IMG/VR virus record: IMGVR_UViG_3300027503_000009
Length of the DNA stretch: 64,000 nucleotides
Reading direction: 5' to 3' (one strand)
From: a virus
The position numbers were made by a program, and so were the translations under genes. Shown here in pieces: positions 2,629 to 52,033 of the stretch. The stretch's first letter is position 1; each line of letters starts with the position of its first letter. Under the pieces are notes generated by a model that was not told where the DNA came from, searched no databases, and was given only the letters and a program-made list of their open reading frames with translations.

Positions 2629-2630
2629 TT

Positions 2631-3785: not shown

Positions 3786-3798
3786 TATAAATAGTTAT

Positions 3799-3872: not shown

Positions 3873-3882
3873 AAAGATTAAT

Positions 3883-3959: not shown

Positions 3960-3966
3960 AAAATTT

Positions 3967-4059
3967 GCTCCTATGGTGTAATGGTAAGCACGGCAGCCTT
4001 ATAAGCTGTTCACTCCAGATTAGAGTACGGTCCAGGTTCGAATCCTGGTGGGAGCACCA
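3967..4059 (+). tRNA. tRNA-Ile(TAT) with a long variable arm
   Basis: GCAGC-CT-TAT-AA-GCTGT, ACTC/GAGT variable-arm stem, CCA. Confidence 0.85.
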
Positions 4060-4067
4060 AAGTTTTT

Positions 4068-4144
4068 GTGTCGTAAGTGTTATTGGTTTCGCACGGGAGT
4101 TTGTGACACTCTCAGGGTTGGTTCAATTCCAACACGACACCCCA
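4068..4144 (+). tRNA. tRNA-His(GTG)
   Basis: TT-GTG-AC loop, C73, CCA. Confidence 0.88.
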
Positions 4145-4155
4145 AAAAATAATAT

Positions 4156-4230
4156 GCGAGTGTGGTGTTAATGGTAGCACACTGGTCTTCCAAACCATTG
4201 GTATCGGTTCGAATCCGATCATTCGCTCCA
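4156..4230 (+). tRNA. tRNA-Gly(TCC)
   Basis: CT-TCC-AA loop, U73, CCA. Confidence 0.92.
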
Positions 4231-4238
4231 AAATTTTA

Positions 4239-4326
4239 GGAGAATGCTGAGGTTGGCTCCTCGCACGGTCTTGAAAACCGTAGTATCTCTAACGGGATAA
4301 TAGTTCGATGCTATCATTCTCCTCCA
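4239..4326 (+). tRNA. tRNA-Ser(TGA) with an 8/4 fold
   Basis: 8-bp GGAGAATG/CATTCTCC acceptor, 4-bp T stem, variable arm. Confidence 0.82.
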
Positions 4327-4329
4327 TAA

Positions 4330-4524
<195 letters not shown>

Positions 4525-4526
4525 AA

Positions 4527-4616
4527 GGAAAATTGGCAGAGTGGTATTGCACCTGATTGCTAATCAGTGGTCATCCTGAAAGGGATGCACAAGTTCGAAT
4601 CTTGTATTTTCCGCCA
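4527..4616 (+). tRNA. tRNA-Ser(GCT)
   Basis: TT-GCT-AA loop, long variable arm, GCCA end. Confidence 0.9.
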
Positions 4617-4662
4617 AATTTAGTTGACAAAAGTTGTTTATAGTGGTACAATAAAAATGTGA

Positions 4663-4740
4663 TGGCGTGTAGCTCAGTTGGTTTAGAGCGCAGACCTGAT
4701 AAGTCTGAGGTCACTGGTTCGATTCCAGTCACGCCAACCA
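4663..4740 (+). tRNA. tRNA-Ile(GAT)
   Basis: CT-GAT-AA loop, CCA; TTGACA-17-TACAAT upstream. Confidence 0.93.
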
Positions 4741-4760
4741 AAAAATAAAAAGGATAAATT

Positions 4761-5816
4761 ATGAGTTTTTTCATTAAGAATGGTAACAATTTCAGGGTCA
4801 CGCCTAATAATAACTTAGATATTAGTAATAATCTTCCACCTGGAAATTATACCGTTAAGTTTGATAATATGAATAAAGAATATTCTCTAGAACAGATTGA
4901 TTCTTTTTCATTACCCAAAAAGTTATATGGTGATGTTGAAAAAACCACAAGTAGAATTTTAACCACCTTTAATCAAAGACCAAATTCTACAGGTGTTATG
5001 CTTTCTGGTGAAAAAGGTTCAGGTAAAACACTACTAGCAAAGTCAATTTCAGTTAAAGCTGCTGAACTTGGTATTCCTACAATCATCATCAATCAACCTT
5101 GGTTTGGTGATGGTTTCAATGCTTTTATTCAGACCATTCAACAACCTGCTATTATCTTTTTTGATGAATTTGAAAAAGTTTATGCAGAAAAGGAACACCA
5201 AGAAGCAGTTCTAACACTTTTTGACGGTGTTTATCCTACTAAAAAGCTTTTCATTTGTACATGTAATGATAAGTTCAGAGTTGACACAAACATGAGAAAT
5301 CGTCCAGGTAGAATCTACTACATGATTGATTTTACTGGTCTTGATATTAATTTTATTCGTGAATATTGTGAAGAAAATTTAATCAATAAAGACAATATTA
5401 ATTCTGTTTGTAATATTTCTTCAATCTTTCATCAATTTAATTTTGATATGCTAAAAGCTATGATTGAAGAAATGAATCGTTATAATGAAACTGCACCTGA
5501 AGTAATTAAGGTAATCAATACAAAACCTGAATTTAGTTCAGCAGTTACTTATGATATTGAATTTATTCCAAATAATCCAATTCATTTTGGTTCAGATGGA
5601 TATACAAAAACATTTACAGGTAATCCTATTGTTAAAGATGTTTATATTGGATATGAGACTGATGATGGTGAATATGTTGATACACAATATTTTTACCCTA
5701 GTGACATTATTTCAATTGATCCTTCAGGTAAAGTAACCTATTTGGATAGTGATAATAATAAGTTAATTCTTACAAAGAAGATTGAAAAGAAACCTATGGA
5801 ATTCTTTGCCTTCTAA
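4761..5816 (+). CDS. AAA+ ATPase
   Basis: Walker A GEKGSGKT, Walker B IFFDEFEK, NRPGRI. Confidence 0.9.
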   Translation: MSFFIKNGNNFRVTPNNNLDISNNLPPGNYTVKFDNMNKEYSLEQIDSFSLPKKLYGDVEKTTSRILTTFNQRPNSTGVMLSGEKGSGKTLLAKSISVKAAELGIPTIIINQPWFGDGFNAFIQTIQQPAIIFFDEFEKVYAEKEHQEAVLTLFDGVYPTKKLFICTCNDKFRVDTNMRNRPGRIYYMIDFTGLDINFIREYCEENLINKDNINSVCNISSIFHQFNFDMLKAMIEEMNRYNETAPEVIKVINTKPEFSSAVTYDIEFIPNNPIHFGSDGYTKTFTGNPIVKDVYIGYETDDGEYVDTQYFYPSDIISIDPSGKVTYLDSDNNKLILTKKIEKKPMEFFAF

Positions 5817-5827
5817 ATAGTTTAAAC

Positions 5828-5901
5828 ACCCGCTTAGTGTAACGGCAGCACAAATGACTTTGACTCATTTAGTCTAGGTTCGAATCCTGGAGCGGGTGCC
5901 A
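5828..5901 (+). tRNA. tRNA-Gln(TTG)
   Basis: AATGA-CT-TTG-AC-TCATT, CCA. Confidence 0.92.
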
Positions 5902-5939
5902 AACTTGACAACAATTAAAAATTTTGGTATAATTAAATT

Positions 5940-6863
5940 ATGAAAGCATATATTACAATTGGTCTTCCTGCTTCTGGGAAAACGACCTGGGCCAAAGAGT
6001 TTTGTAAAACGAATAACGTTGTTCGTGTGAACAACGACGACATTCGTGAACTTATTTATGAGAAGGAAGGCCATCGGAATTGGACTGGCGAAGTCGAGAA
6101 ACAGGTCCGGTGGATTCGCAAAGCAAAGATTGTAGAAGCAGCAGGACACAATATGAGTGTTGTGGTGGATAACACTCACCTGAATCCAAAGACGCTTCAG
6201 CAGATCAAAGACTTTTGTGTTGATGTTGGATTCGAAGTTGAGTTGGTAGATTTCCGTCATGTGCCTCTTGAAGAGTGCATCCGCCGTGATTCTTTGCGTG
6301 AAGCGAAAGTTGGAGAAAAGGTAATTCGTGATATGTATGATAAATTTATGAAAACTCCGATTGATCGTGATCTCCCAAAATGGGAACCTAATCGACTATA
6401 TAATTGTATTATTGTTGATATTGATGGTACTCTTGCTCAAATGAAAGATCGTGGACCTTATGATGAACATAAAGTATATCAAGACGATGTTCGAAATCAT
6501 GTCTTAATGACTGTTAAGGCATTGAAGATGATCAATCCGAATTTTAAAATATTTATTTTTACTGGACGTTCTGAAAAGTGTTCAACTGAAACTGTTAAAT
6601 GGCTAGAAGATAAATGTGGCTTTTATGTTCTGAATCATCATGATGAATATGATGATTTTCGATTAAATGTTGAACTTCATATGAGACAAGAAAATGATCG
6701 TCGTAGAGATTCAGAAGTAAAAATGGATATGTACAATCAATTCATCAAGTATAAATATAATGTATTTGCTGTTTTTGATGATCGCCCACAAGTCATCAGA
6801 GAATGTTGGAAAGTATTAAATGTTCCAGTTTTTAATTGTGGATTAATAGATTTGGAGTTCTAA
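5940..6863 (+). CDS. pseT: polynucleotide 5'-kinase/3'-phosphatase
   Basis: GLPASGKT P-loop, DIDGT HAD motif, FDDRPQV. Confidence 0.92.
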   Translation: MKAYITIGLPASGKTTWAKEFCKTNNVVRVNNDDIRELIYEKEGHRNWTGEVEKQVRWIRKAKIVEAAGHNMSVVVDNTHLNPKTLQQIKDFCVDVGFEVELVDFRHVPLEECIRRDSLREAKVGEKVIRDMYDKFMKTPIDRDLPKWEPNRLYNCIIVDIDGTLAQMKDRGPYDEHKVYQDDVRNHVLMTVKALKMINPNFKIFIFTGRSEKCSTETVKWLEDKCGFYVLNHHDEYDDFRLNVELHMRQENDRRRDSEVKMDMYNQFIKYKYNVFAVFDDRPQVIRECWKVLNVPVFNCGLIDLEF

Positions 6864-7032
6864 TGTCACCACCTGTATTTTTTACTGCACTAGCTGTTAT
6901 TCTTTGTTATCTTTGTTATAAATTAGGAGTAGCTTTAGAGAGAGAAAAATGGATTTACCATCTACACTTTCTTGAACGTGGTGTTGCGAAATGTTACAGA
7001 AATGGTAAAGTAGATCTTCTTTAAGAGGAAAT

Positions 7033-7215
7033 ATGTACGAGAATTTAATTGGAAAAAATGTTGATGAAGTTAGAGATTTTTTAAAAGAAAATCAAATTCC
7101 TTCAAGAGTTGTAAATATTGATGGTGTCCCATTCATGTTGACAAATGATTATAATCCAGCCAGATTAAATCTTTCTGTTGAAAATGGTTTGGTTACTGAA
7201 GTAATTATAGGTTAA
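7033..7215 (+). CDS. small serine-protease-inhibitor-like protein (potato inhibitor I / I78 fold)
   Basis: Pattern LIGK...LTNDYNPARLNLSVENGLV...G. Confidence 0.65.
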   Translation: MYENLIGKNVDEVRDFLKENQIPSRVVNIDGVPFMLTNDYNPARLNLSVENGLVTEVIIG

Positions 7216-7216
7216 T

Positions 7217-7750
7217 ATGAAACGTTGGGTGATTTCTGATACACATTTTGGTCATGAGAATATTATTAAATATTGTAATAGACCATTTCAAACAAAAGAA
7301 CAAATGGATGAAGTTCTAATAAATAATTGGAACAAATGTGTATCAGAAAATGATATTGTTTATTTTCTTGGTGATTTTTGTTTTGGTCGTCCAGGACATC
7401 AAGTTTCAAAAAATTATCGTGAGAAATTAAATGGAAAAATACATTTGATTCGTGGTAATCATGATAAATATATTGACGAATCTTTGTTTGAAACATCACA
7501 AAATGATCTAGTATTAAATATCATGGATAAACAAATTTATCTTTGTCACTATCCAGAAGAAGATAATAGATTTAATAAGCCATACTATGATTTTTATCTG
7601 TATGGTCATATTCATGATAAAATAAAATTTCACCCAAGAAAATTCAATATGTGTGTTGAAAATTGTGATTATACACCAATTGATTTAGATTTTTTTGTTG
7701 ATTTTATTTCTAGACATTATGGAGACAATTATGAACCAAAAGAAAGTTAA
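7217..7750 (+). CDS. calcineurin-like metallophosphoesterase
   Basis: SDTHFGH, LGD, GNHD and GHIH motifs. Confidence 0.92.
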   Translation: MKRWVISDTHFGHENIIKYCNRPFQTKEQMDEVLINNWNKCVSENDIVYFLGDFCFGRPGHQVSKNYREKLNGKIHLIRGNHDKYIDESLFETSQNDLVLNIMDKQIYLCHYPEEDNRFNKPYYDFYLYGHIHDKIKFHPRKFNMCVENCDYTPIDLDFFVDFISRHYGDNYEPKES

Positions 7751-7992
7751 GGTTATTCCTGAACAAATTATTCCTTCACGAATGATTGGTTCATGTTATC
7801 AATGTGATTTTTATTTCACAGATTCTTTAGGCGATTCTAGATTCTGTAAAAAAGTTAATAAAGAAGTAGATTTGCGAATTGGTGAAAAATTTCCAAAATG
7901 GTGTCCACTAGAAGAAAAAGAAATTGATGAAAATATTTTCCTCTAGCACTTGACAAACCATAAAATTTTTGATATTATAAATATATAAACAT

Positions 7993-8071
7993 AGGGAAAT
8001 AGAGGAGCCTGGTTTATCTCGTCTGTTTTGGGAACAGAAGCACGTCGGTTCGAATCCGACTTTCCCTACCA
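7993..8071 (+). tRNA. tRNA-Pro(TGG)
   Basis: TCTGT-TT-TGG-GA-ACAGA, CCA. Confidence 0.88.
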
Positions 8072-8077
8072 AATTTT

Positions 8078-8152
8078 TCTGGAATAGCTCAATGGTAGAG
8101 CGTCTGGCTGTTAACCAGAATGTTGTAGGTTCGAGTCCTACTTCCAGAGCCA
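8078..8152 (+). tRNA. tRNA-Asn(GTT)
   Basis: CT-GTT-AA loop, GCCA end. Confidence 0.93.
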
Positions 8153-8432
8153 AGATGCGGCTCATGGCAATAGTCACCCACGGTAAGGAGAGATTAGAAA
8201 CTCGCAGACTATAAAAATCCGCAAACAAGATTAGTGAGGATAAATTATGAAATATTTTTTATTTGCGTGTAGTTTTTTATTTTCTGGATATTTTGTTAAT
8301 GCAAATGTTCCAAAGTTTTGTACTCCGCATGGATGTTGTGTAGATAAATGTCCGTGTGTGAAGAAATGTTTATGTGATTGTGCATGTAAACGAAAGAAGC
8401 GATCATGATCGCTATTAAGGTATAATGAATAT

Positions 8433-8717
8433 ATGAAATTCTTTAGCTTTCTACAAAATAATTCTTTCGGTATTGATAAGCCTCCACCAAAAGTTGTTAT
8501 TGTTGAGGCGGAAAATGCCGAAGATGCGAACAAGCGTATTTTAGAAGTAGATGGCGTTTATTTCGGTGGTAATAATCGCTGGTCCCGTCAGTTGTCTTAT
8601 GAAGTTGGTGATGAAGTCCCGTCTCTTTGGGGTGATCCTCTTGAATTTGCTGAAGATGGAAACGTTTTAGTGGTTTATGCAAACGGTGAAAAAAAGTTTG
8701 GTGTTTTTCACTGGTAG
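8433..8717 (+). CDS. hypothetical protein, paralog of 45169..45492
   Basis: Shares QNNS, VEAENAEDAN, EVDGVYF and VLVVYANGEKK...FHW. Confidence 0.8.
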   Translation: MKFFSFLQNNSFGIDKPPPKVVIVEAENAEDANKRILEVDGVYFGGNNRWSRQLSYEVGDEVPSLWGDPLEFAEDGNVLVVYANGEKKFGVFHW

Positions 8718-8763
8718 TATTGACTTCTCAATTCCTTTCGAGGTATAATGGTTGTATGGTAAA

Positions 8764-8839
8764 GCTATGATAGCTCAATTGGTAGAGCAACGGTTTTGTA
8801 AACCGTAGGTTGTCAGTTCAAGTCTGACTCGTAGCTCCA
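8764..8839 (+). tRNA. tRNA-Thr(TGT)
   Basis: ACGGT-TT-TGT-AA-ACCGT, CCA. Confidence 0.93.
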
Positions 8840-41871: not shown

Positions 41872-42492
41872 TTAGATCCCGTGGATTCGTTTCCACGTCA
41901 CCCAAGTAATAGCTTGAACCTGAGATGCGGACAAACCAACAATTCCCGCTACCATCCGGTATGCGGAAATAATCGCAGAACGTTCCCGTTCTGCGATATG
42001 CGGCATTGTCGCTACAGTGTAGCGATAGCCTACCGCAACGCTATAGGCATGAACGTCTACGGTAACCTTATCGTCACCGTTCTTATCACCGTTGCGGAGG
42101 TTATCAGCAAAAGCCGTAACCTTGGGACCGCTCAAAATATGGCGAAACGGTTCGTTCCGTTTGTCTGCTAACAGGATAGCAGCTGCCTTGTCGATGTTGC
42201 GACGATAGCCCGCAACACCGGACACTAACGATAACGGCTTATCGTTAGCGATAGCGTCGGCCAAAATATCAATTCCATTCAAATTTGAAGTCCAACGGAT
42301 ACCCGGCGATAATGCGGCAGTTGCATCAACTACCGCATCGAACGAAAAGTTAGAAACACGGGCAATAACCCGTAATTGTTCGTGGGCGGCGGTGTACCAT
42401 GCACCCCCGGAGCGTTTTTCTTCCGGCGTCGCCATATTGTAGACGGCGAGGATGTTGGTCATGAAATCGTTGGTCATACGAAAAATGGTCAT
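41872..42492 (-). CDS. conserved phage early protein
   Basis: GAWY, AALSP..RW, GPKV..F and VTVDVHA motifs. Confidence 0.8.
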   Translation of the reverse strand: MTIFRMTNDFMTNILAVYNMATPEEKRSGGAWYTAAHEQLRVIARVSNFSFDAVVDATAALSPGIRWTSNLNGIDILADAIANDKPLSLVSGVAGYRRNIDKAAAILLADKRNEPFRHILSGPKVTAFADNLRNGDKNGDDKVTVDVHAYSVAVGYRYTVATMPHIAERERSAIISAYRMVAGIVGLSASQVQAITWVTWKRIHGI

Positions 42493-42692
42493 TTTTTCCT
42501 TTTCTGTTTGGCGCTGGCCTCAACTCTTATAGATTACCATAGGCCAGAACTAAACTGCAATACCCTACCACGAAAAAACTACATAAATTCCATAAATACC
42601 CCCCATAAGGAAAACGAATGATAGCGCATCCAAAATCATATTGATAACGTTGTTTTTCATACTGTTATTCTCTCATGAAAAAATGGGGATTG

Positions 42693-42908
42693 TCAATCCC
42701 CATTTTCATTATTTTCCATATCTTCAATGACTTCAATCATCTCACGGTACAACGGGCAATAGTTCCAGTGACCAACATGATGTCCCAACATCAAATCGAA
42801 ATGCTCATATTTTTCACCGTTCCACTCCCAACGGGAATGGATTAAATTATATTCATTCCCGTTGTGATAGACCGTCATGATTTTTTCTTCAATGTAATTT
42901 TGTTCCAT
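42693..42908 (-). CDS. early hypothetical protein (leaderless)
   Basis: TTGACA-17-TACCAT-6-ATG; TGA stop lies inside the next TTGACA. Confidence 0.75.
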   Translation of the reverse strand: MEQNYIEEKIMTVYHNGNEYNLIHSRWEWNGEKYEHFDLMLGHHVGHWNYCPLYREMIEVIEDMENNENGD

Positions 42909-42960
42909 GAGTCAATGGTATCAAGGTCAGAAAAAAATGTCAAGAAAAAAACAAAAAAAA

Positions 42961-43135
42961 TTTTGGTACTATCGGTCCTGGTGCCAGTACTAGTACCTCG
43001 CCAGGTCTGGTACTATTGGTCCTGGTGGTACTATCGGAAGGGGATGGGCGTACTAGTACTAGTGACCAGTTAGTACTAATGCGCCCATCCGCAGTACTAG
43101 TACCGTTGACCAGACGGTACTAGTGGTACTGGTAG
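42961..43135. repeat. non-coding GTAC-rich repeat cluster
   Basis: 12 GTAC tetramers in about 165 nt, including GTACTAGTAC units. Confidence 0.85.
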
Positions 43136-43151
43136 GCAAAGGAACTACCAG

Positions 43152-43346
43152 TTAATCTTCCCAAACAAACTTCGCAGAATTTAACTTAACTTGCCCCCAT
43201 TGGTCAACTTGCCAACTCATTCCGGCCCAATCAAACAACCAATGTTCCCACAAGTTAGACCAACGCATGTTTGCGAGAATAATCTTCGCATCATATGATC
43301 TGAACTTCTCTTGAATTGAGGCGACAATCTCAGGCGTGGGTGTCAT
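43152..43346 (-). CDS. early Trp-rich hypothetical protein
   Basis: Own promoter directly upstream of the ATG. Confidence 0.7.
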   Translation of the reverse strand: MTPTPEIVASIQEKFRSYDAKIILANMRWSNLWEHWLFDWAGMSWQVDQWGQVKLNSAKFVWED

Positions 43347-43401
43347 ATGTTCCTATCTTAGCACGATGTGTTCAGGTTGTCAACCTGATGTGTTCAAATT
43401 T

Positions 43402-43505
43402 CCTTTTAATTAAGTCCTTTTCCGGCATTATGCGTAGGTCATCAATACTTTTGGAGGGGTACAAACGACCCTTACGCATTGACGGAAAAGGACTTAATTA
43501 AAAGG
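43402..43505. repeat. long inverted repeat
   Basis: 23-bp perfect arms CCTTTTAATTAAGTCCTTTTCCG. Confidence 0.85.
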
Positions 43506-43510
43506 TGGGG

Positions 43511-43774
43511 CTACTGCCCCACCTTCTTGCTGATGTGACGGGCGATAATCTTGCCCGTCACCTGATTGCGAACACGCTTCTTATTGCCATTCTCAGCAAC
43601 AATCTGGTTGTAGAGGTACATAACAGCCCCAAGATTGGAGTCCACCAGATTGATCGTGGTGTACTTGGACTTGTCCACACCAACTTGAATCTGGTAGCCA
43701 GTGTTGGGGGTGTTCTGAATCGCACCCTTCTCATTCTGGAAGGAAGCGGTCTGGAAGTTGAAGGTCATCTGCAT
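43511..43774 (-). CDS. early hypothetical protein
   Basis: Promoter, conserved GAGTCAGGGCAAG leader and RBS. Confidence 0.75.
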   Translation of the reverse strand: MQMTFNFQTASFQNEKGAIQNTPNTGYQIQVGVDKSKYTTINLVDSNLGAVMYLYNQIVAENGNKKRVRNQVTGKIIARHISKKVGQ

Positions 43775-43876
43775 TTTCGTTTTTTCCTTTTCTATCAGGC
43801 TTGCCCTGACTCTTTTAGTATCTCACAGGTTCGGTTGCTTGTCAACAGTTTTCAGAACTTTTTTTCTTGGGGGAGG

Positions 43877-44158
43877 TTATTCCTCCCCCATCCCCTCATC
43901 GCCACCATCCTCATTTTCTACATCACCCACAAACTCAACTCCCGGCCAGTAGAAAACATATCCATAACCCATGTTATCCCATTTCACATTGGTTGGGACG
44001 TAAACGTTTCTACGTCCCATTTCATACATCACATCCAAAATCTCAGCCATTGTGTCAACCACAATGGCAAGGCAAGATTTGCCACCCATATAACGGCCAG
44101 AATAGCCCCTGCACTCAAAACCACAATCTTCGAGAAATTCCTGCAAATCGCTTTTCAT
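43877..44158 (-). CDS. early hypothetical protein
   Basis: YSGRYMGGKSCLA...WDNMG motif; leaderless promoter. Confidence 0.78.
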   Translation of the reverse strand: MKSDLQEFLEDCGFECRGYSGRYMGGKSCLAIVVDTMAEILDVMYEMGRRNVYVPTNVKWDNMGYGYVFYWPGVEFVGDVENEDGGDEGMGEE

Positions 44159-44196
44159 GATTTTATTCTCCCATACTGGAAGGGGTTTGTCAACCC

Positions 44197-44412
44197 CTAG
44201 AACAACTTTTTGTGAAATTTCACAACTTTGGAAATCGCAGACTGCAAAGTTTTGCAGGGAACTAAGGAAATCTTCTCTTCAGAAAACAACATCAGTTCTT
44301 TTTTCTTAGGGTTCCAATCAGCAACCAGTGTGCCATTCAGCAAAAACTCAGTGAAGCAGTAGATGCTGCCACGGTCAAAGGTGTTGATTTCAAGTTTCTG
44401 TTTTTCAACCAT
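44197..44412 (-). CDS. early hypothetical protein
   Basis: Leaderless promoter. Confidence 0.7.
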   Translation of the reverse strand: MVEKQKLEINTFDRGSIYCFTEFLLNGTLVADWNPKKKELMLFSEEKISLVPCKTLQSAISKVVKFHKKLF

Positions 44413-44559
44413 GATTTATATTACCACGACCCCTCAGAGAATGGCAACAGAAAAATGATGAAAACTAGAAGTTTTTTCTGTTGCCATTCTCTGAGGGGTG
44501 TCAGGGGTACCCCTGACACCCAAAACCCCAGGAAGGGCCGTTTCCGGCCCAGGAATCAC

Positions 44560-44778
44560 CTATTCCCCGTAGTAGTCGTAAGACTCATACTGCGATTCAT
44601 ACATCGAATCCAGGTGCTGGTCCTCCAGCTCAAAACTAGGATCTTCAGGATAGTCCTGGAAATCGTCAGAATCATAGATGTCGGCCATTTCAGCCTGAGC
44701 ATCTTCCCAGGCTTCATTCCGACCCATTTCTTCCAGGTCGTTTTCGTAGAACTCGTAGGTGTCGTAGTCTTCAAACAT
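44560..44778 (-). CDS. extremely acidic early protein (72 aa)
   Basis: AAGGAG RBS; 27 D/E, 1 R, no K. Confidence 0.8.
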   Translation of the reverse strand: MFEDYDTYEFYENDLEEMGRNEAWEDAQAEMADIYDSDDFQDYPEDPSFELEDQHLDSMYESQYESYDYYGE

Positions 44779-44893
44779 TCCGTTTTCTCCTTTTGTCTTG
44801 GCTCTTGCCCTGACTCTTTTAGTATCGCACGTTGTAGCAGGGAAGTCAACAACTTTTTTTGTTTTTTTGTGGGGGATTTTCGCCCCCCACACT

Positions 44894-45130
44894 TTACTTC
44901 ACCTGAACCGCAACCTGTTTGATTTCAGCAACATAGACATCGCCCACATCAAACGTTCCATATGTCATTGGAGACTTCACCGCACAGTACCAGCGAGCGA
45001 AGGGGTTTTGCTTTTCCTTTTCCGGAGTCTGATAGGTCTTGAGAACACGCCATTCCCAGGAACCATCAAAACTCTTGAAAATCATATGAGGATTGTCAAT
45101 CTTGGCAGTTTTGCCGAATGGATTCTTCAT
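44894..45130 (-). CDS. early hypothetical protein
   Basis: WEWRVLKTYQ...ARWYCAVKSP; leaderless promoter. Confidence 0.78.
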   Translation of the reverse strand: MKNPFGKTAKIDNPHMIFKSFDGSWEWRVLKTYQTPEKEKQNPFARWYCAVKSPMTYGTFDVGDVYVAEIKQVAVQVK

Positions 45131-45168
45131 ATTGTTAGTATCTCACATTCTGGGGGGTTTGTCAACAG

Positions 45169-45492
45169 TTACCAGTGAAAAAGTCCCCTCTTTTTTTCAC
45201 CGTTTGCGTAAACCACTAAAACATCACCATCACCATCACCATCACCAAAAACAACAGGATCACCATAAGTAGACGGGACATCATCGCCAACTTCACCAGA
45301 CCATTTGCTGGACCAGCGATCACCGCAACAAGGGCAGTCAACGCCAGAATCACAACCATCGAAGTAAACACCCTCTACTTCTAAAACACGATTGTTCGCA
45401 TCTTCGGCGTTTTCAGCCTCAACAACAACGTGTTTTGCTGGTCCGGTGAAATGACCACCTGAATTATTTTGAGAAAAATGGAAGAATTTCAT
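45169..45492 (-). CDS. early hypothetical protein (QNNSGG...DCPCCGDRW family)
   Basis: Recognisable motifs; leaderless promoter. Confidence 0.8.
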   Translation of the reverse strand: MKFFHFSQNNSGGHFTGPAKHVVVEAENAEDANNRVLEVEGVYFDGCDSGVDCPCCGDRWSSKWSGEVGDDVPSTYGDPVVFGDGDGDGDVLVVYANGEKKRGLFHW

Positions 45493-45549
45493 ACTTTTAG
45501 TTTCTCACATTCTGGGGGGTTTGTCAACCCCCCACTTGAAGTTTTTTTG

Positions 45550-45813
45550 CTATTCAGCGATTCGGCGTTCAAACACCCCACGTTCCAGAGTGGCAGTGTC
45601 AGAACCATCAGTGTGGAACGTGATGGGGAAGTAGTCTTCACCAATCTGAGCATAAACTTCAGTTTCATTCATACCCAAGTCAATCCAGTCACCAACAGCA
45701 CCAGCGTAAGTCTCAGATTCTACAACATTTTCAGGATTGAAATTCCCAGGAAGGTCACCAACCAGGAAACGCTTGATAGGGAGGGTCGAAAACTTAACTT
45801 TCTTCAGAAACAT
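45550..45813 (-). CDS. early hypothetical protein
   Basis: Conserved leader and RBS. Confidence 0.72.
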   Translation of the reverse strand: MFLKKVKFSTLPIKRFLVGDLPGNFNPENVVESETYAGAVGDWIDLGMNETEVYAQIGEDYFPITFHTDGSDTATLERGVFERRIAE

Positions 45814-46307
45814 GGTCTTTTCTCCTTTTGTCCTGGCTCTTGCCCTGACTCTTTTACTTTACCACAACCTTTTTCCGGTTGTCAACAGAATTTTTCAAGT
45901 TTTTGTGAAAGTCACAAACGTTCCGTTTGCAGTTGGGGCAGTTCAGAATCGAAAGCATCAGGTGTTGTTTGCTCATGTTTTTACTTTACCACAGAAGTTT
46001 TGGGGATGTCAAGAGTTTTTTTCAACTCTTTCGAAAAATCCAGCACAGTCGGAAATGCAATAGAAAACAAAGAAACAACCAGGACAATCAACAGAATGTC
46101 AAACATCGAATCACTGATAAGCCGTTTCATGAATCCATCATCTCACAGTCTGGGGAATTTGTCAACTACTTAATTGCACAATCTGCTTTCATGGCGAAAA
46201 AAATAATAATCACACCGAAAAGATAACCCGCCATGAAAAACGTAAGATATTTGAGTCGAAGTTCTTTTCTTGTCATGAATCCATCATCTCACAGTCTGAG
46301 GGGTTTG

Positions 46308-46523
46308 TCAACCCCAAGAACCAAGTTTTTTCTTTTTTGTTGCGGCAACCAGAACAGCTTCAGAAATCATTAAAAAAACTTCAGAATCAATCACAGTCTG
46401 GATTTCCCGCAACTTGTAACCCTTTTGTTGCCAATTGATTACAATGGGTTTCAATGCTTCATACACTTCATCCGCAAGTTGTTGACCTTCAAGAGTTTTT
46501 GCTTCATACTCATTGTAAAGCAT
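46308..46523 (-). CDS. hypothetical protein
   Basis: GGAGG RBS; TAATG coupling with the upstream ORF. Confidence 0.72.
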   Translation of the reverse strand: MLYNEYEAKTLEGQQLADEVYEALKPIVINWQQKGYKLREIQTVIDSEVFLMISEAVLVAATKKKKLGSWG

Positions 46524-46660
46524 TATTCTTCCTCCTTCTTGTGCTTGCGCTTGCGATAATTCTTGCTTTTGGTTTTCTTGTCCTGGATAATAGATCCGGT
46601 CTTTACACCAGACCGGATCTTAGCAGGATTAAACTTGGGCAGCTTGATGTGTTCAACCAT
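46523..46660 (-). CDS. small basic protein (45 aa, not in the ORF track)
   Basis: Leaderless promoter; ends KTKSKNYRKRKHKKEEE. Confidence 0.65.
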   Translation of the reverse strand: MVEHIKLPKFNPAKIRSGVKTGSIIQDKKTKSKNYRKRKHKKEEE

Positions 46661-46695
46661 ACTGTTATTATCCCATGTGTTCTTCACAATGTCAA

Positions 46696-46899
46696 CTACT
46701 CTTCAAGTTTTTTTTGTAAGGCACTGATAATTAAAGGTAATTCTTCTTTCGACAAGGTGATTCTACTCATAATTTTTCCTTGATCGTCATGTTGGCGAAT
46801 CTCAAACAACCCAAGTCCATCAGCATCATCTGTGACTGCAATATGGTCACCTGTGTCATCATTCCAAATTCTGTAGCAAATTTCCATACTGTGCCGCAT
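46696..46899 (-). CDS. hypothetical protein
   Basis: AGGAG RBS. Confidence 0.72.
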   Translation of the reverse strand: MRHSMEICYRIWNDDTGDHIAVTDDADGLGLFEIRQHDDQGKIMSRITLSKEELPLIISALQKKLEE

Positions 46900-46907
46900 T
46901 TTTTCTC

Positions 46908-47027
46908 CTAGTTAAAAGGTGATTTGTATTTCTTACCACATTCAAGGCAACTGTAATGACCATTAACAGGTCTGGTCATCTTTGTGTGGAATTCCCGACA
47001 AAACCAAACACTAAGCTTTTGCAGCAT
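46908..47027 (-). CDS. small Cys/His zinc-binding-like protein (39 aa, not in the ORF track)
   Basis: MLQKLSVWFCREFHTKMTRPVNGHYSCLECGKKYKSPFN; AAGGA RBS. Confidence 0.6.
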   Translation of the reverse strand: MLQKLSVWFCREFHTKMTRPVNGHYSCLECGKKYKSPFN

Positions 47028-47202
47028 TTTGATTATCCTTTAACGTAGACAAAACCAAAATCTGCATCGTCACAAAGTCGATAATAGCCTGAGCGTTCAG
47101 GTAATCATCGTCGTTTTCATCGAACCTGCTAATAATCAGGTTCATCAGACCGATTACCTTCATGTTTCCGCTAATCAGATCGTCAATCACATCGTTCATC
47201 AT
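47011..47202 (-). CDS. early hypothetical protein
   Basis: TTGACA-17-GATAAT-6-ATG. Confidence 0.7.
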   Translation of the reverse strand: MMNDVIDDLISGNMKVIGLMNLIISRFDENDDDYLNAQAIIDFVTMQILVLSTLKDNQNAAKA

Positions 47203-47240
47203 GATATTATTATCGCACCTTTCTTTTCGGTTGTCAAGCA

Positions 47241-47438
47241 TTATTTTGTAGACCTAAACCAAGACCTAGACATAGACCTAGACCAAGACCCAGACGCAGA
47301 CCAAGACCCAGACCCAGACCAAGACCCAGACCCAGACCCAGACCAAGACCCAGACCCAGACCTAGACCAAGACCTAGATCTAGACCCAGACATAGACCAA
47401 GACCAAATATTTCTTTTGTAGATTGATTTCTTGATCAT
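47241..47438 (-). CDS. (Ser-X)n repeat peptide, copy 1
   Basis: MIKKSIYKRNIW leader followed by TCT-NNG repeats. Confidence 0.7.
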   Translation of the reverse strand: MIKKSIYKRNIWSWSMSGSRSRSWSRSGSGSWSGSGSGSWSGSGSWSASGSWSRSMSRSWFRSTK

Positions 47439-47444
47439 AGTTTA

Positions 47445-47603
47445 TTATCCAATTTCAGAATAAGTCCTAGACACAGACCAAGACCTAGACCCAGACCAAG
47501 ACCTAGACCAAGTCCTAGACCCAGACCTAGACCCATACAAAGACCAAGACCCAGACCTAGACATAGACCAAATATTTCTTTTGTAGATTGATTTCTTGAT
47601 CAT
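47445..47603 (-). CDS. (Ser-X)n repeat peptide, copy 2 (52 aa, not in the ORF track)
   Basis: MIKKSIYKRNIWSMSRSGSW...TYSEIG. Confidence 0.7.
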   Translation of the reverse strand: MIKKSIYKRNIWSMSRSGSWSLYGSRSGSRTWSRSWSGSRSWSVSRTYSEIG

Positions 47604-47639
47604 AAACAAAAAAGTTTGGGGGATTTCTCCCCCAAACCA

Positions 47640-47906
47640 CTAACCCTTCTTACCGATGCCGAAAGACTCAATTGCAGAAGTCTGCACATACCAAGTCTTC
47701 GTGGGAAGGTTCTGAGCGTCCTTGTACTTCGAATCGCTGAACGCACCAGTCTCATAAACAATCTTGGCATCGTCCAGAAGGACACAGGTATCGTTCACTC
47801 CAGTGAGCGTACCAGCATAGATGTAGTTCGCACAGAACAACATCACGTGCTCACCAAGAAGGGCCACAAGACCTTCACCCTGAACCTCAGTCACAATCTT
47901 CTTCAT
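47640..47906 (-). CDS. Sm/LSm-fold-like protein
   Basis: Sm1-like LLGEHVMLFCANYIYAGTLTGVNDTCVLLDDA; Sm2-like WYVQTSAIESF. Confidence 0.65.
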   Translation of the reverse strand: MKKIVTEVQGEGLVALLGEHVMLFCANYIYAGTLTGVNDTCVLLDDAKIVYETGAFSDSKYKDAQNLPTKTWYVQTSAIESFGIGKKG

Positions 47907-48130
47907 AATCAGTTTTCTCCTTTTTTCTTGTCAGATTTCCTCTGACTCTTTTAGTATCTCACACCCTGTGTGATTTGTCAAGTTTTTTGTTTTTTGTTTT
48001 TCTAGCCTCCAACTACCTGCTAGAAATTTTAAGGGCAGGAAGGGCCGTTTCCGGCCCAAGAAATGCTATTCTATATTAGTCGTCCCAGTCATACTCCTGG
48101 TAGTCGTCATGATCTTTGTAGTCGTTCCAG

Positions 48131-48481
48131 TTAATAAGCATAGATATTTGCCTTTCCGTTTTCGATGAAGAGGTCACACCAGGCGGAAGTTTCAATTTTC
48201 TTTCCGGTGAGGACATTGATGAAGTAATCTGCCTCATAGGGATTGTAACGAACCGTGTTCCTTTTCAGGAAAAGCTCTTGGTCTTTTTGCCAATCACCTT
48301 CAACAAAGGCATGAACATTTTTCTTTTTTTCACGAAGAACACGTTCCCGTCCAGACTTGGAAACAGTGAACTTGGCATTTTTCAGGATGATGGTGTCGGT
48401 GTGGGCAATAACCTTGCGGGTTTTTTTGTCCATGACAGAGAAAACTTTCTTGTGAAGGTTGAAGTAGACTTTAACTCTCAT
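48131..48481 (-). CDS. conserved phage early protein
   Basis: VYFNLHKK, KKNVHAFV, YNPY motifs. Confidence 0.8.
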   Translation of the reverse strand: MRVKVYFNLHKKVFSVMDKKTRKVIAHTDTIILKNAKFTVSKSGRERVLREKKKNVHAFVEGDWQKDQELFLKRNTVRYNPYEADYFINVLTGKKIETSAWCDLFIENGKANIYAY

Positions 48482-48519
48482 GTTTTTATTCTCTCACATT
48501 CTGATCAGAATGTCAAGGT

Positions 48520-48714
48520 TTATTTTGACTCAGACCTAGACCCAGACCCAGACGCAGACCAAGACCCAGACCAAGACCCAGACCCAGACCAAGACACAGA
48601 CCAAGACCCAGACTCAGACCTAGACCAAGACCTAGACCCAGACCAAGACGCAAACTGAGACTCAGACCCAGACCTAGACCAAATATTTCTTTTGTAGATT
48701 GATTTCTTGGTCAT
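48520..48714 (-). CDS. (Ser-X)n repeat peptide, copy 3
   Basis: MTKKSIYKRNIW leader; own leaderless promoter. Confidence 0.7.
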   Translation of the reverse strand: MTKKSIYKRNIWSRSGSESQFASWSGSRSWSRSESGSWSVSWSGSGSWSGSWSASGSGSRSESK

Positions 48715-48773
48715 GTTTTTATTCTCTCACATTCTAGGTGAAATGTCAAGGGGGAATTTCTTCCCCCTGCAAA

Positions 48774-49235
48774 CTACCAGGATGCTTGGTAGTAATAGGT
48801 CGTTCGACCATCAACCCATTCATCCTTGATTTCCTGGAAAAGTTTGATGGCACTTTCTAGGTCGTTCCAGTACCACTCATCAATTTGAATGGAACCAAAG
48901 AAAAACCCAGAAACAGGAGGAAACATTTCAAGAGCAATATCTTCTCTCTTAGAGATCAGGACTTCTTTCATGGTTAAAAGAAGATTGTCAACATTTTCCT
49001 CATAGAAAATAATTTCTTGACATTCATCCCTACCATCAGCAAGCTGCACAAACCAGTTGTGGAGTGCATTGAACTTGCGGAAATAACCAAGTTCCTCAGT
49101 CACATAGGTGACTTTATCCTTCTTGATGTGGGTAGGTTGTCCGTTGTTGGTCACAACAACTTCATACTTGTTTTCCTTGTCGAAAGACCAATTCTGAATG
49201 TAGCTCTTGCGGTTGATGTATTGATCAAGTCCCAT
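48774..49235 (-). CDS. conserved phage protein (MGLDQY...YYQASW family)
   Basis: YFRKFNALHNWF, GFFFGS. Confidence 0.82.
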   Translation of the reverse strand: MGLDQYINRKSYIQNWSFDKENKYEVVVTNNGQPTHIKKDKVTYVTEELGYFRKFNALHNWFVQLADGRDECQEIIFYEENVDNLLLTMKEVLISKREDIALEMFPPVSGFFFGSIQIDEWYWNDLESAIKLFQEIKDEWVDGRTTYYYQASW

Positions 49236-49279
49236 GATTAAATCTTATCACCATTCAGGATGTTTGTCAAGAAGAATTT

Positions 49280-49355
49280 TGGTGCGCCCAGCAGGGTTCG
49301 AACCTGCGACCCTCTGATTAAAAGTCAGATGCTCTACCAACTGAGCTATGAGCGC
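49280..49355 (-). tRNA. tRNA-Lys(TTT)
   Basis: Reverse complement gives TCTGA-CT-TTT-AA-TCAGA and CCA. Confidence 0.94.
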
Positions 49356-49365
49356 ACATTAAATT

Positions 49366-49440
49366 TGGTAGCCCCGCAGGGATTCGAACCCCGATTCTAG
49401 GTTTAGAAGACCTATGTCCTATCCATTGAACGACAGGGCC
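49366..49440 (-). tRNA. tRNA-Arg(TCT)
   Basis: Reverse complement gives TAGGT-CT-TCT-AA-ACCTA and CCA. Confidence 0.93.
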
Positions 49441-49448
49441 AAAAACTT

Positions 49449-49646
49449 TTAGGCAGTCTGATACTTGCCCTTGACTTCCTTGTTCAGAAACTTTCCAGAA
49501 GAAGGTGCGTTCACCAGATCCTCATAGACCTGAACAGGAACGTCCTTGTAGTCATACTTCTTACCGGAAGTAAACTTCACAGTGAGAATCTGATTGATGT
49601 GGTCATAACCAACACCAGAAACAGCGGAACTTTCAAGCTTTACCAT
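49449..49646 (-). CDS. KTSC domain protein
   Basis: ESSAVSGVGYD...LTVKF..G..YDY..VP...APSSGKFLN. Confidence 0.9.
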   Translation of the reverse strand: MVKLESSAVSGVGYDHINQILTVKFTSGKKYDYKDVPVQVYEDLVNAPSSGKFLNKEVKGKYQTA

Positions 49647-49708
49647 ATTTATATCCTTTTTTGTGGGTTGTGAGTTTCTCTCACTCACAACCCTAGTATA
49701 CCACAGAA

Positions 49709-49927
49709 TTACTTCTTACGCAAGCCCTTGTCGATATCAACAGCAGTTTTGAATGCAGGAATATCAAAATGTTCCTTGTATTCATCCAGCGGCATTTTCC
49801 GAAATTCATCAACGAAGGAACCTTCAACAATTTCTGCCAGTTCCCATTCACTCATAGATTCAACCAACTTGGTTGCATAAACCTGAGTCAGCAAATCCAA
49901 TTCTTTTACAGTCAGATCGTTAATCAT
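49709..49927 (-). CDS. hypothetical protein
   Basis: GAGG RBS; weak resemblance to 49936..50145. Confidence 0.7.
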   Translation of the reverse strand: MINDLTVKELDLLTQVYATKLVESMSEWELAEIVEGSFVDEFRKMPLDEYKEHFDIPAFKTAVDIDKGLRKK

Positions 49928-49935
49928 GTTTTCCT

Positions 49936-50145
49936 CTACTGTTCCAGTGTACCAGATTCCATGTCGTCTGTCAAGAGTTCAGGGGCAACTTCTGTGATTT
50001 CTGCCAGAATATCTTCAGTCCCCATCTGCTCCAAACGTGCATGAATGGATTCATAGGCATGATTGATGAGATCCTCCATGTCCATTGTATCAACAATCAA
50101 TTCTACATATTCGTTAATGAGGTCGTGCAGTTGTTCGTTACTCAT
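49936..50145 (-). CDS. acidic early protein
   Basis: Leaderless promoter; D/E-rich. Confidence 0.75.
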   Translation of the reverse strand: MSNEQLHDLINEYVELIVDTMDMEDLINHAYESIHARLEQMGTEDILAEITEVAPELLTDDMESGTLEQ

Positions 50146-50147
50146 GA

Positions 50148-50357
50148 TTATATCTTAGCACCTTTCAGGTTAGTTGTCAACTCAATTTTTGAAGTTTTCA
50201 ATCCATACCACAATTTCATATAAGAACGGACTCTTGCCCACTTTCCGGTGAAAGTGATTTGTCGATAACAAGAACCAGTTCTAATACCGGAACAAGGGAT
50301 TGATTTTTCCCCAGACCTGGATGCAGTCCACACTCTTGAAATGCGTGATTTCATCAT
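50148..50357 (-). CDS. small basic early protein
   Basis: Leaderless promoter. Confidence 0.55.
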   Translation of the reverse strand: MMKSRISRVWTASRSGEKSIPCSGIRTGSCYRQITFTGKWARVRSYMKLWYGLKTSKIELTTNLKGAKI

Positions 50358-50388
50358 GAAACTATATTAGCACCTTTCTGTGTGTTTG

Positions 50389-50556
50389 TCAAGACCTAGA
50401 CCCAGACCAAGACCTAGACATAGACTCAGACTCAGACCAAGATCCAGACCTAGACATAGACTCAGACTCAGACCAAGATCCAGACCAAGACCCAGACATA
50501 GACATAGACATAGACTCAGACCAAGACTTAAATTTTTGTGTTCTTGATTTCTTCAT
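50389..50556 (-). CDS. (Ser-X)n repeat peptide, copy 4 (55 aa, divergent leader, not in the ORF track)
   Basis: MKKSRTQKFKSWSESMSMSMSGSW; TGA stop lies in the next TTGACA. Confidence 0.68.
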   Translation of the reverse strand: MKKSRTQKFKSWSESMSMSMSGSWSGSWSESESMSRSGSWSESESMSRSWSGSRS

Positions 50557-50587
50557 GATTATATCATACCACAGGCTGATGTGTTCG

Positions 50588-50779
50588 TCAAGACCCAGAC
50601 CCAGACCAAGACCAAGACCTAGACCCAGACATAGACCCAGACCTAGACCAAGACCCAGACCAAGACCCAGACTCAGACCCAGACATAGACCTAGACCTAG
50701 ACCCAGACCAAGACCAAGACCAAGACCAAGACCCAGTCCCAGACCAAATATTTCTTTTGTAGATTGATTTCTTGATCAT
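50588..50779 (-). CDS. (Ser-X)n repeat peptide, copy 5
   Basis: MIKKSIYKRNIW leader. Confidence 0.7.
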   Translation of the reverse strand: MIKKSIYKRNIWSGTGSWSWSWSWSGSRSRSMSGSESGSWSGSWSRSGSMSGSRSWSWSGSGS

Positions 50780-50785
50780 AGTTTA

Positions 50786-50971
50786 TTAACCAGTTTCAGA
50801 ATAAGACCTAGACCCAGACCTAGACTCAGACCTAGACCCAGACCAAGACCTAGACCCAAACCCATACCAAGACCTAGACCTAGATCCAGACCCAGACCAA
50901 GACCCAGACATAGACCAAGACATAGACCTAGACGCAGACCAAATATTTCTTTTGTAGATTGATTTCTTCAT
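50786..50971 (-). CDS. (Ser-X)n repeat peptide, copy 6
   Basis: MKKSIYKRNIW...SYSETG; -10-like box just upstream of the ATG. Confidence 0.7.
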   Translation of the reverse strand: MKKSIYKRNIWSASRSMSWSMSGSWSGSGSRSRSWYGFGSRSWSGSRSESRSGSRSYSETG

Positions 50972-50996
50972 GATTATATTATACCACAGGTGGCCC

Positions 50997-51998
50997 TTAA
51001 CGGGCCACCTTGAAACAAGTGGATTTCGCAACTTTCACGAAATCTTCATCAGACTTCGCAAACTTCAGAATTTTCGCCAACTTCAACACCATGCGAAGCG
51101 ACAATTCCCGCAGCTTCTTGTGGTTGTCCTCCACAAACTGCATCAACGTCTGCTGCTGGTTTTCTTCCAGTCCCAGAGTGTGAAGCATATCGGTGTTCTG
51201 AACCACGTCCTTGATTCGGATCAGGAACTCACGGGTATTTCGCAAATTCAAATCCAAGTAGAACGAACGGGAAATCAGTGCCTGATAGTGAGGTGACATT
51301 TTGTTGCCCTGCTGGATCATGGCATCAAAATCCCGATTGGTGACGAAAATCACAGAACCACGAAATTCAAACGTGGAAGGAATTTCATCGCCAGCATCAT
51401 CTTCCCACTTCTTTTCCGTTTTCCAGGAAATCATGCGGCGTTTGGTGCTATCCAAAGCAGCTTTCCAGATGTTCAGACCAACTTCATCATCGAAAACAGA
51501 ATCAGCGTCATCAATCAGCAAAACACTGTTTTCATGACGATTTTCCCACAACATCCGGAAAATGCCAGTAGGACGAACAAAGCCCTTAACAGGAGTGTAG
51601 TTAATCTTCTCATCAAGGAAAGCATTCTCCAACATCATTTCGATGTTGTAGGTCTTGCCGATGCCAGGATTGCCGGAAACAATCATCGACGTGACCTTGC
51701 CTTCAATAACAGCTTCCACCATGCGATCCATCGAAGAGAAACCATCACGCTGACGCTCCAGAATTTCCTCGTCAGTTTCCACAACAAGAGGAACAACTTC
51801 ACCAGGAGCTTCAGCAACACCATTAACATTTCGCAGCACGTTCAGATCGAAGATGCCACGAGAAATCTTACCAAGAGTCCAAAACTTAACAGGAATGCGA
51901 ACATTGAAAATTTCAGCTTCCTGCTTAATAGTCTTAGCACGAAGAATGGTGCCGCCGTGCTTTTCAGTCATCTGGTCAACGAAGTTCGTGATGTTCAT
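50997..51998 (-). CDS. early P-loop/AAA+ ATPase
   Basis: GNPGIGKT, LLIDDAD, IFVTN, ALISR. Confidence 0.88.
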   Translation of the reverse strand: MNITNFVDQMTEKHGGTILRAKTIKQEAEIFNVRIPVKFWTLGKISRGIFDLNVLRNVNGVAEAPGEVVPLVVETDEEILERQRDGFSSMDRMVEAVIEGKVTSMIVSGNPGIGKTYNIEMMLENAFLDEKINYTPVKGFVRPTGIFRMLWENRHENSVLLIDDADSVFDDEVGLNIWKAALDSTKRRMISWKTEKKWEDDAGDEIPSTFEFRGSVIFVTNRDFDAMIQQGNKMSPHYQALISRSFYLDLNLRNTREFLIRIKDVVQNTDMLHTLGLEENQQQTLMQFVEDNHKKLRELSLRMVLKLAKILKFAKSDEDFVKVAKSTCFKVAR

Positions 51999-52033
51999 AT
52001 TGTTAGTATCTCACAGTTTGGTCAGGTTGTCAA

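Follow-up and report, generated by a model that had tools for sequence, protein, structure and literature searches.

Six Ser-X genes and their Sm-like neighbor

The viral DNA analyzed here, IMG/VR record IMGVR_UViG_3300027503_000009, is 64,000 nucleotides (nt) long and is referred to below as the window. Between positions 47241 and 50971, its minus strand carries six short open reading frames (ORFs), which we term Ser-X copies 1 to 6, each encoding a short head followed by a tail in which serine alternates with a variable residue, X. A first-pass annotation of the sequence had called all six, and every one of its coordinates was confirmed. The gene that is the key to their nature was absent from that account; it encodes an 88-residue protein that is predicted to adopt an Sm/LSm fold. 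These genes and the sites associated with them are as follows.

47241–47438, minus strand: Ser-X copy 1; 65 amino acids (aa), net charge +11; starts 3 nt past the double stop of copy 2 (TAATAAACTATG)
47445–47603, minus strand: Ser-X copy 2; 52 aa, net charge +9; no promoter or Shine–Dalgarno sequence of its own
47613–47638, minus strand: terminator-like hairpin and T-run, separating the Sm-like gene from copy 2
47640–47906, minus strand: gene for the protein with a predicted Sm/LSm fold; 88 aa, acidic and without Arg in this phage; copies 2 and 1 lie directly downstream
47953–47981, minus strand: sigma-70-like promoter of the Sm-like gene; TTGACA, 17 nt, GATACT, TG-extended
48520–48714, minus strand: Ser-X copy 3; 64 aa, net charge +6; head MTKKSIYKRNIW
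48721–48749, minus strand: sigma-70-like promoter of copy 3; arranged as for a leaderless transcript, the −10 element ending 7 nt before the ATG
50389–50556, minus strand: Ser-X copy 4; 55 aa, net charge +3; head MKKSRTQKFK
50563–50591, minus strand: promoter of copy 4; TTGACG, 17 nt, TATGAT; −10 element ends 7 nt before the ATG
50588–50779, minus strand: Ser-X copy 5; 63 aa, net charge +7; starts 3 nt past the double stop of copy 6
50786–50971, minus strand: Ser-X copy 6; 61 aa from the ATG, net charge +9

The head M(I/T)KKSIYKRNIW, which had been assigned to five copies, is present in four of them; copy 6 begins MKKSIYKRNIW instead, and the divergent head of copy 4 is as first described. Beyond the head, each copy continues as the (TCT-NNG)n array that had been reported, with serine encoded by TCT in 133 of 134 cases and ≈92% of the X codons ending in G. 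Tandem Repeats Finder resolves the tails as period-6 arrays of 16–26 units, and all 82 matches to (TCTNNG)4 in the window fall on the minus strand within the six ORFs, with none in 100 shuffles. The paired junction, in which ...YSE(I/T)G is followed by TAATAAACTATG and the next copy, does occur twice, at 47439–47450 (copy 2 to copy 1) and 50780–50791 (copy 6 to copy 5). Several copies also have an early promoter of their own, as had been proposed: sigma-70-like sites precede copies 3 and 4, and at copy 6 an extended −10 element (TGGTATAAT) ends ≈7 nt before the ATG, directly after the hairpin that closes an nrdC.10-like gene. The −35 element of the copy 4 promoter includes the stop codon of copy 5, and the stop codons of copies 5 and 4 each lie inside the −35 hexamer of the next promoter.

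Copy 4 has X residues rich in Met and Glu, unlike those of its sister copies, and its array shows an internal 36-nt period that marks a recent duplication (Tandem Repeats Finder). In its head, copy 4 resembles distant lineages more closely than its own paralogs, and this head fits a K-Q-K-aromatic-basic motif. Just downstream lies a 69-aa ORF (50148–50357) that starts MMKSRISRVWTASRSGEKS and has no Pfam or PHROG match; judging from its sequence, it looks like a decayed head and Ser-X start fused to unrelated sequence.

The arrays keep several frames open by construction beside Ser-X, namely (LG)n in the sense direction and (PR)n and (DP)n in the antisense direction, and an open frame alone is therefore little evidence for a gene. 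Antisense ORFs of this kind, with (Asp-Pro/Gln)n and (Pro-Arg)n translations of 55–126 aa, lie on the plus strand at 48278–48658 and 50380–50767; such ORFs are interrupted wherever X is Gln (CAG).

The structure of the Sm-like protein was predicted with AlphaFold2 (AF2), which returned a model with a predicted local distance difference test (pLDDT) score of 91.8, in which a helix at the N terminus leads into a five-stranded, strongly bent β sheet. In a Foldseek search of the PDB with this model, nearly all of the top 50 matches were Sm/LSm chains, with TM-scores of up to 0.80 and root-mean-square deviations of 1.7–2.4 Å; structure matches to viral models were weak. The sequence itself has no Pfam family at E ≤ 0.1 (LSM PF01423 and Hfq included), no PHROG family, and no PDB sequence match. 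From the structural model, we conclude that the constant partner of the Ser-X peptides is an Sm-fold protein. Its family comprises 496 clusters at 90% identity and 512 at 50%, in genomes with a guanine plus cytosine (GC) content of 33–64%. Fifteen residues are invariant, the set consisting of aromatic residues (many of the 15), Asn, Glu, and Thr. Invariant Asn38 is located in the loop following strand 2, and G32-x-L34-x-G36 resembles the Sm1 motif; there is no conserved Arg-Gly. Tandem two-domain Sm-like fusions exist naturally (proteins P0124, P0128, and P0179), a hint from sequence that the protein could act as an oligomer. We found no fusion of an Sm-like domain to a Ser-X tail, the longer matches being either N-terminal miscalls or tandem Sm-like domains. 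Complex prediction for the Sm-like protein with copy 2 gave a score of 0.00, which we count neither for nor against binding.

The gene pair in other phages

To gain a view of the Ser-X genes beyond this phage, viral contigs were searched for (TCTNNG)8, which yielded more than 58 unrelated loci with GC contents of 0.32–0.58. These loci encode short ORFs of the same build, often in tandem and with up to about 14 per locus among the matches listed. Clustering of the neighboring ORFs produced a single shared gene, the homolog of 47640–47906, which is located 30–110 nt upstream on the same strand in 29 of 58 loci, again among the matches listed. A second, anchored scan used the 88-aa protein alone as its query, which avoids the bias of a DNA seed, and found 282 viral loci encoding a relative. 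One or more (Ser-X)n ORFs lie immediately downstream of the Sm-like gene in 72 of the 77 loci with sufficient downstream DNA. At 26 of 73 distinct junctions, the peptide start overlaps the Sm-like stop codon (ATGA or GTGA), and at 22 more the two are separated by at most 15 nt; in most other lineages, a start/stop overlap takes the position of the hairpin and T-run found at 47613–47638 of the window. Together, these comparative data show that the peptide genes are linked to the Sm-like gene and, as far as junction sequences can tell, that translation of the two is often coupled.

Clustering of the ORFs at 96 loci revealed no third conserved gene beside the pair, modification enzymes included. 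The most expanded array that we describe, at locus L011 (IMGVR_UViG_3300042987_003260, GC 0.58), places about 14 tandem Ser-X genes behind a single Sm-like gene; each of their heads reads MITKR(T/S)RWRR, and one copy is frameshifted within its array. The pair appears to be present in hundreds of uncultured phage lineages. No cultured host or phage with the pair was found; outside the viral contigs, it turned up only in one metagenomic phage record and 16 contigs of metagenome-assembled genomes, most of them short. That phage record, from an uncultured phage, was the single match in a tblastn search of 50,697 phage records with the 88-aa protein. Relatives with 93% identity are present in freshwater samples of the Lake Mendota type.

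At least 13 further Ser-X loci carry a second upstream family of about 87–115 aa with the motifs FIRTVT, ASWVADSGRF, and EVEP. This family is a distant homolog of the 88-aa family (hhalign probability 96.6%, E = 7e-10), its model has an LSm-like fold as well, and it has no Pfam or PHROG family. Its loci (alignment A2) are the following.

L090, L038, L059, L100, L116, L126, L024, L071, L086, L118, L123, L102, L124

The Ser-X peptides themselves match nothing in Pfam or PHROGs, and no description of the pair was found in the family libraries or in the literature searched (for repeat strings, phage Sm-like proteins, and dipeptide repeats). We therefore regard the pair as new, an undescribed family within the literature and libraries covered. 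If our account is correct, annotation has overlooked a gene pair in hundreds of uncultured phage lineages: the partner belongs to no family, and the peptides resemble junk repeats of the sort that gene callers and low-complexity filters discard.

Peptide-level selection and the NGG codon rule

Because the arrays hold several frames open, the case for translation must come from elsewhere. Serine codons do vary synonymously among homologs, being TCT, TCG, TCA, or AGC according to lineage, and the codon used loosely tracks GC content; because the codon differs between lineages, it is the amino acid that is conserved. Where arrays were defined at the DNA level without regard to ORFs, TCT-TAG units were observed 3 times against ≈65 expected, in every case as the final unit. 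All relatives share the head core KKSIYKR, and the Ile, Lys, Ser, and Asn codons of the head vary synonymously. Across lineages, the heads share a common character, with a median length of 10 residues, a net charge of +4, and almost no acidic residues; an aromatic residue occupies one of the last four head positions in 46 of 62 cases, and a K-Q-K-[YWF]-[KR] motif is often present. Frameshifts and stops in homologs, which the first-pass annotation would have taken as the mark of a plain hexamer microsatellite, are the opposite of what we find, as frame and start codon are kept in 72 of 77 loci. Serine retention across codon families, TAG avoidance, synonymous change in the heads, and their shared character together argue that the peptides are translated. 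These comparisons show selection acting at the peptide level, and the six ORFs in the window very likely are genuine genes whose products are small peptides with a positive charge. The earlier proposal of translated leader-plus-repeat peptides, amplified in the early region and outside described families, is thereby supported on comparative grounds.

Serine occupies every second residue in ≈90% of positions. The X positions are 36% Gly, 26% Trp, and 25% Arg, with Cys at ≈1%; the Trp share, 0.28 in the comparison with genome GC, is independent of it (r = 0.10). Along the tails, the patterning of Trp, Arg, and Gly does not differ from shuffles, the order of X being random. The peptide net charge is always positive (+2 to +16, mean +10), and that of the Sm-like protein is always negative (−1 to −7), so the partners carry opposite charges. 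The peptides are best described as a basic head of ≈10 residues with an aromatic residue, followed by a disordered tail in which Ser alternates with Gly, Trp, or Arg.

The arrays turn over rapidly. A related IMG/VR record, G001, has 46% of sampled words in common with the window and carries seven Ser-X copies. Between the two, the flanks are 97–98% identical and the arrays 77–87%, with hexamer insertions and deletions, and copy number differs at all three sites (3 in the window vs 4, 1 vs 2, and 2 vs 1). Sequence comparison thus shows the arrays evolving by hexamer slippage far faster than their flanks. The Ser codon is near-uniform within an array and different between lineages, a combination that points to concerted evolution by slippage.

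A second regularity concerns the X codons, which end in G in ≈95% of units in every lineage, regardless of GC content or Ser codon, and for Glu, Lys, and Gln too. In the window tails, Gly is GGG in 39 of 44 cases (89%) and Arg is AGG in 29 of 30 (97%), while in other long ORFs GGG and AGG each make up 3.3% of the codons for their amino acid; the X codons are the rarest of the phage. The GG at X codon positions 2–3 is constant, and the four bases between GG pairs vary by lineage. TGG is the sole codon for Trp, and among the codon boxes NGG alone tolerates every change of the first base without producing a stop. Such stop-safety, with concerted evolution, may contribute to the rule, although we judge the two insufficient, and a direct constraint on RNA or translation is a possible cause.

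Several nucleotide-level candidates were considered and rejected. A constraint on TCT itself, suggested by early statistics from the TCTNNG-seeded loci, reflected seed bias, as the anchored scan found TCG, TCA, and AGC arrays. The same arrays rule out the candidates built on a GGTCT motif, namely the EcoP1I site (AGACC), T7-primase sites, and GGUCU RNA. A three-tetrad G-quadruplex would require four consecutive GGG units, which are missing from many arrays. Array RNA does fold more stably than shuffled sequence (z = −3.9 and −4.4); the effect comes from GGUCU self-pairing, however, and such self-structure would fail for other Ser codons, as in GGUCG.

Possible roles and the early-region setting

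That the Ser-X ORFs encode real peptides and are partnered with the Sm-like gene is, in our estimation, about 0.9 probable on the comparative evidence. The pair would constitute a widespread, self-contained phage cassette, of which the window holds an expanded version with one Sm-like gene and six peptide genes. Four of the six have been relocated away from the Sm-like gene, and three of these four have promoter-like sites of their own. What the cassette does is a more tentative matter. We favor an RNA-directed mechanism, to which we assign a probability of roughly 0.35–0.4. The acidic, aromatic-rich Sm-like protein would form a ring that holds the peptides through their conserved heads, and the polycationic Trp/Arg tails would bind RNA, with Gly and Ser as spacers. 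The resulting multivalent RNA-binding particle or condensate could then alter RNA stability or translation early in infection.

Four observations weigh against this mechanism. The core of the Sm-like protein is acidic, contains little Arg (1.2%), and has no canonical Sm2 Arg-Gly, so that RNA binding by the core itself is doubtful. Four of the six peptide genes in the window have no coupling to the Sm-like gene, which makes a fixed stoichiometry unlikely. The random order of X fits a composition-dependent role and gives no handle on a specific target. Finally, a model that invokes only the peptides leaves the NGG rule for X unexplained.

The alternative that survives best, which we still consider unlikely, casts the pair as a chaperone or antidote and a toxic effector: the peptides would jam host ribosomes, nucleic acids, or membranes, and the Sm-like protein, made just before them, would solubilize, neutralize, or deliver them. 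The gene order, with an acidic partner preceding a basic peptide through a start/stop overlap, accords with such an arrangement, as do the invariably opposite net charges and the conservation of peptide composition (26% W, 25% R, 36% G) and not of sequence. Copy expansion and early promoters in the window likewise suggest that dosage matters. Jamming has precedents in Arg-rich dipeptide repeats and in Trp/Arg antimicrobial peptides; the ribosome exit tunnel is a binding site of poly-GR and poly-PR, and (RW)n peptides act on membranes. A single Sm-like gene for up to six peptide genes in the window, and for about 14 at L011, is nevertheless a poor fit to a 1:1 antidote, and we know of no peptide-chaperone role for the Sm fold.

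A different possibility, and a rather improbable one, is that the array mRNA is itself the ligand, with an Sm-like ring binding its GG every six bases, so that translation serves regulation or RNA protection or the ring controls peptide synthesis. The G at the third base of ≈95% of X codons across lineages, achieved with the rarest codons of the phage, would be explained in this way, the partner fold is that of RNA-binding rings, and the invariant aromatic, Asn, Glu, and Thr residues could read bases without contacting phosphate. The partner is acidic, however, and has no conserved Arg. The Ser codon also varies, AGC included, which leaves GG as the only nucleotide-constant element and makes constant Ser a peptide-level signal; GGUCU self-pairing is specific to that hexamer and not expected of GGUCG; and TAG avoidance, coupled start codons, and synonymous change in the heads all require translation. 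A composite of this proposal with the RNA-directed mechanism can also be drawn, in which the same (Ser codon-NGG)n arrays would be dual-coded, specifying at once a Trp/Arg sticker peptide and a GG-per-six-bases RNA code read by the Sm-like ring, and in which ring, RNA, and peptides would assemble into a ribonucleoprotein condensate that commandeers host RNA metabolism. The NGG box would then allow safe diversification of the peptide. We regard this composite as improbable and speculative.

The first-pass annotation had listed three options for the peptides: a modified-peptide precursor; low-complexity peptides that decoy or jam a host sensor or kinase; and repeat RNAs that act as ligands. An RNA role is conceivable, given that G is maintained at the third position of each X codon. 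Low-complexity peptides are plausible, and decoy roles for a kinase or sensor are pure conjecture. The first option gains no support, as neither a modifying enzyme nor a third conserved gene accompanies the peptides. A core peptide with modified serines (by dehydration, cyclization, phosphorylation, or (phospho)glycosylation) would suit the layout of leader and repeat core and the Ser at alternate residues in ≈90% of positions, and a remote lead exists in TLP-2, a glycofibril from a freshwater pond that is a dipeptide repeat of one phosphoglycosylated Ser and one variable residue and whose gene is unknown (bioRxiv 10.1101/2025.09.30.679562). Set against the empty result from 96 loci, the absence of a signal peptide, and heads of only ≈10 residues, this reading is highly improbable; moreover, ≈25 repeats per peptide fall far short of a fibril, and X is often bulky Trp or Arg, while a small variable residue was modeled in TLP-2. 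A selfish or neutral hexamer microsatellite with incidental open frames would account for whole-hexamer change far faster than in the flanks and for frames open by construction on both strands, but it is close to refuted by the conservation, at 72 of 77 loci, of the frame along with its start codon and head, the avoidance of TAG inside arrays, the retention of Ser across codon families, and the constant linkage to one gene family.

Several known systems resemble parts of the cassette. The eukaryotic Sm/LSm proteins with Arg-Gly tails (SmD1, SmD3, SmB, and LSm4) likewise combine an Sm core with a basic low-complexity repeat of the Arg/Gly dipeptide type, and those tails contribute RNA binding and promote assembly or the formation of granules. 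In the phage system, by contrast, core and tail are encoded by two genes, Trp fills about a quarter of the X positions of a Ser-X repeat, and the acidic core has no Sm2 Arg-Gly; the sequences are not similar (Pfam LSM gives no match), and the setting is a phage and not a eukaryote. The nearest phage precedent is provided by GoF, MotB.1, and Frd.2, three small proteins that T4-type phages produce early and whose fold is predicted to be LSm-like; a mutant of one of them stabilizes an mRNA (PMC12152347). They show no sequence relation to the 88-aa protein by tblastn (more than 1300 T4-type genomes being included among the 50,697 phage records), and the abstract of that paper mentions no repeat-peptide partner (PMC12152347). 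Bacterial Hfq and Phage_Hfq (PF23874) have the Sm fold in common with our protein, and rings would be expected in both. However, Pfam gives no match, and the language-model likeness to a Phage_Hfq cluster (0.79) is a lead only; Hfq has basic rim arginines that the 88-aa family is without. The distal face of Hfq binds periodic A-R-N RNA.

A model for the constant GG at six-base intervals is offered by TRAP of Bacillus, a ring protein that binds (G/U)AG triplets at a fixed period with variable spacers; TRAP, however, has another fold and its repeats lie in an untranslated leader, whereas the phage array is an ORF under peptide-level selection. The C9orf72 GGGGCC expansion is likewise a hexanucleotide repeat encoding Arg-containing dipeptide repeats, and its poly-GR and poly-PR products bind RNA, ribosomes, and low-complexity proteins. 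Those products arise from a pathological expansion and are translated without a start codon, unlike the phage genes, which are conserved with start codon, head, and partner. Precursors of ribosomally synthesized and post-translationally modified peptides, such as the Gly/Ser/Cys-rich microcin B17 precursor, also join a short leader to a core rich in small residues; the phage loci differ in having no modification genes, Cys at only ≈1% of X positions, and a leader of ≈10 residues.

Should our account be correct, the cassette would show an Sm-fold protein of a prokaryotic virus in partnership with a sticker-and-spacer peptide built of dipeptide repeats, and it would provide a natural system for the action of low-complexity polycations in bacteria. 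It would also offer a clear case of concerted evolution in a coding hexamer repeat with an NGG codon rule. What the window adds is a T4-type genome with six peptide genes, several of them with leaderless early promoters of their own, from which we argue that peptide dose matters early in infection.

The phage is a distant T4-like one, as indicated by an nrdC.10 homolog with 37% identity to those of Escherichia T4-type phages. The minus-strand early region that bears the arrays (≈42–52 kb) has a GC content of ≈44%, compared with ≈30% in the rest of the window, and the G-rich arrays account for the rise at 42000–52000 only in part. Three neighboring early genes have recognizable families.

48131–48481: homolog of mycobacteriophage L5 gp82 (PF25735)
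49449–49688: KTSC-domain protein (PF13619)
50997–51998: nrdC.10-like P-loop protein (phrog_1250)

Twenty-two tRNA genes are found in the window. Those for tRNA-Lys(UUU) and tRNA-Arg(UCU) are interspersed with the peptide genes (49280–49440), and others (1–8839) include two tRNA-Trp, tRNA-Gly(UCC), tRNA-Glu(UUC), and two tRNA-Met. Jointly, the window tRNAs cover most X codons by wobble; the sole tRNA-Ser has the anticodon GCU and does not decode UCU. Given as many as 22 tRNA genes, the match to X codons may be coincidence. Within 4.3 kb (47209–50591), there are 10 minus-strand promoters with TTGACA, a 17-nt spacer, and a TG-extended −10 element. At several of the ten, the −10 element ends 7 nt 5′ of an ATG, and many early genes beyond the Ser-X copies therefore look leaderless as well.

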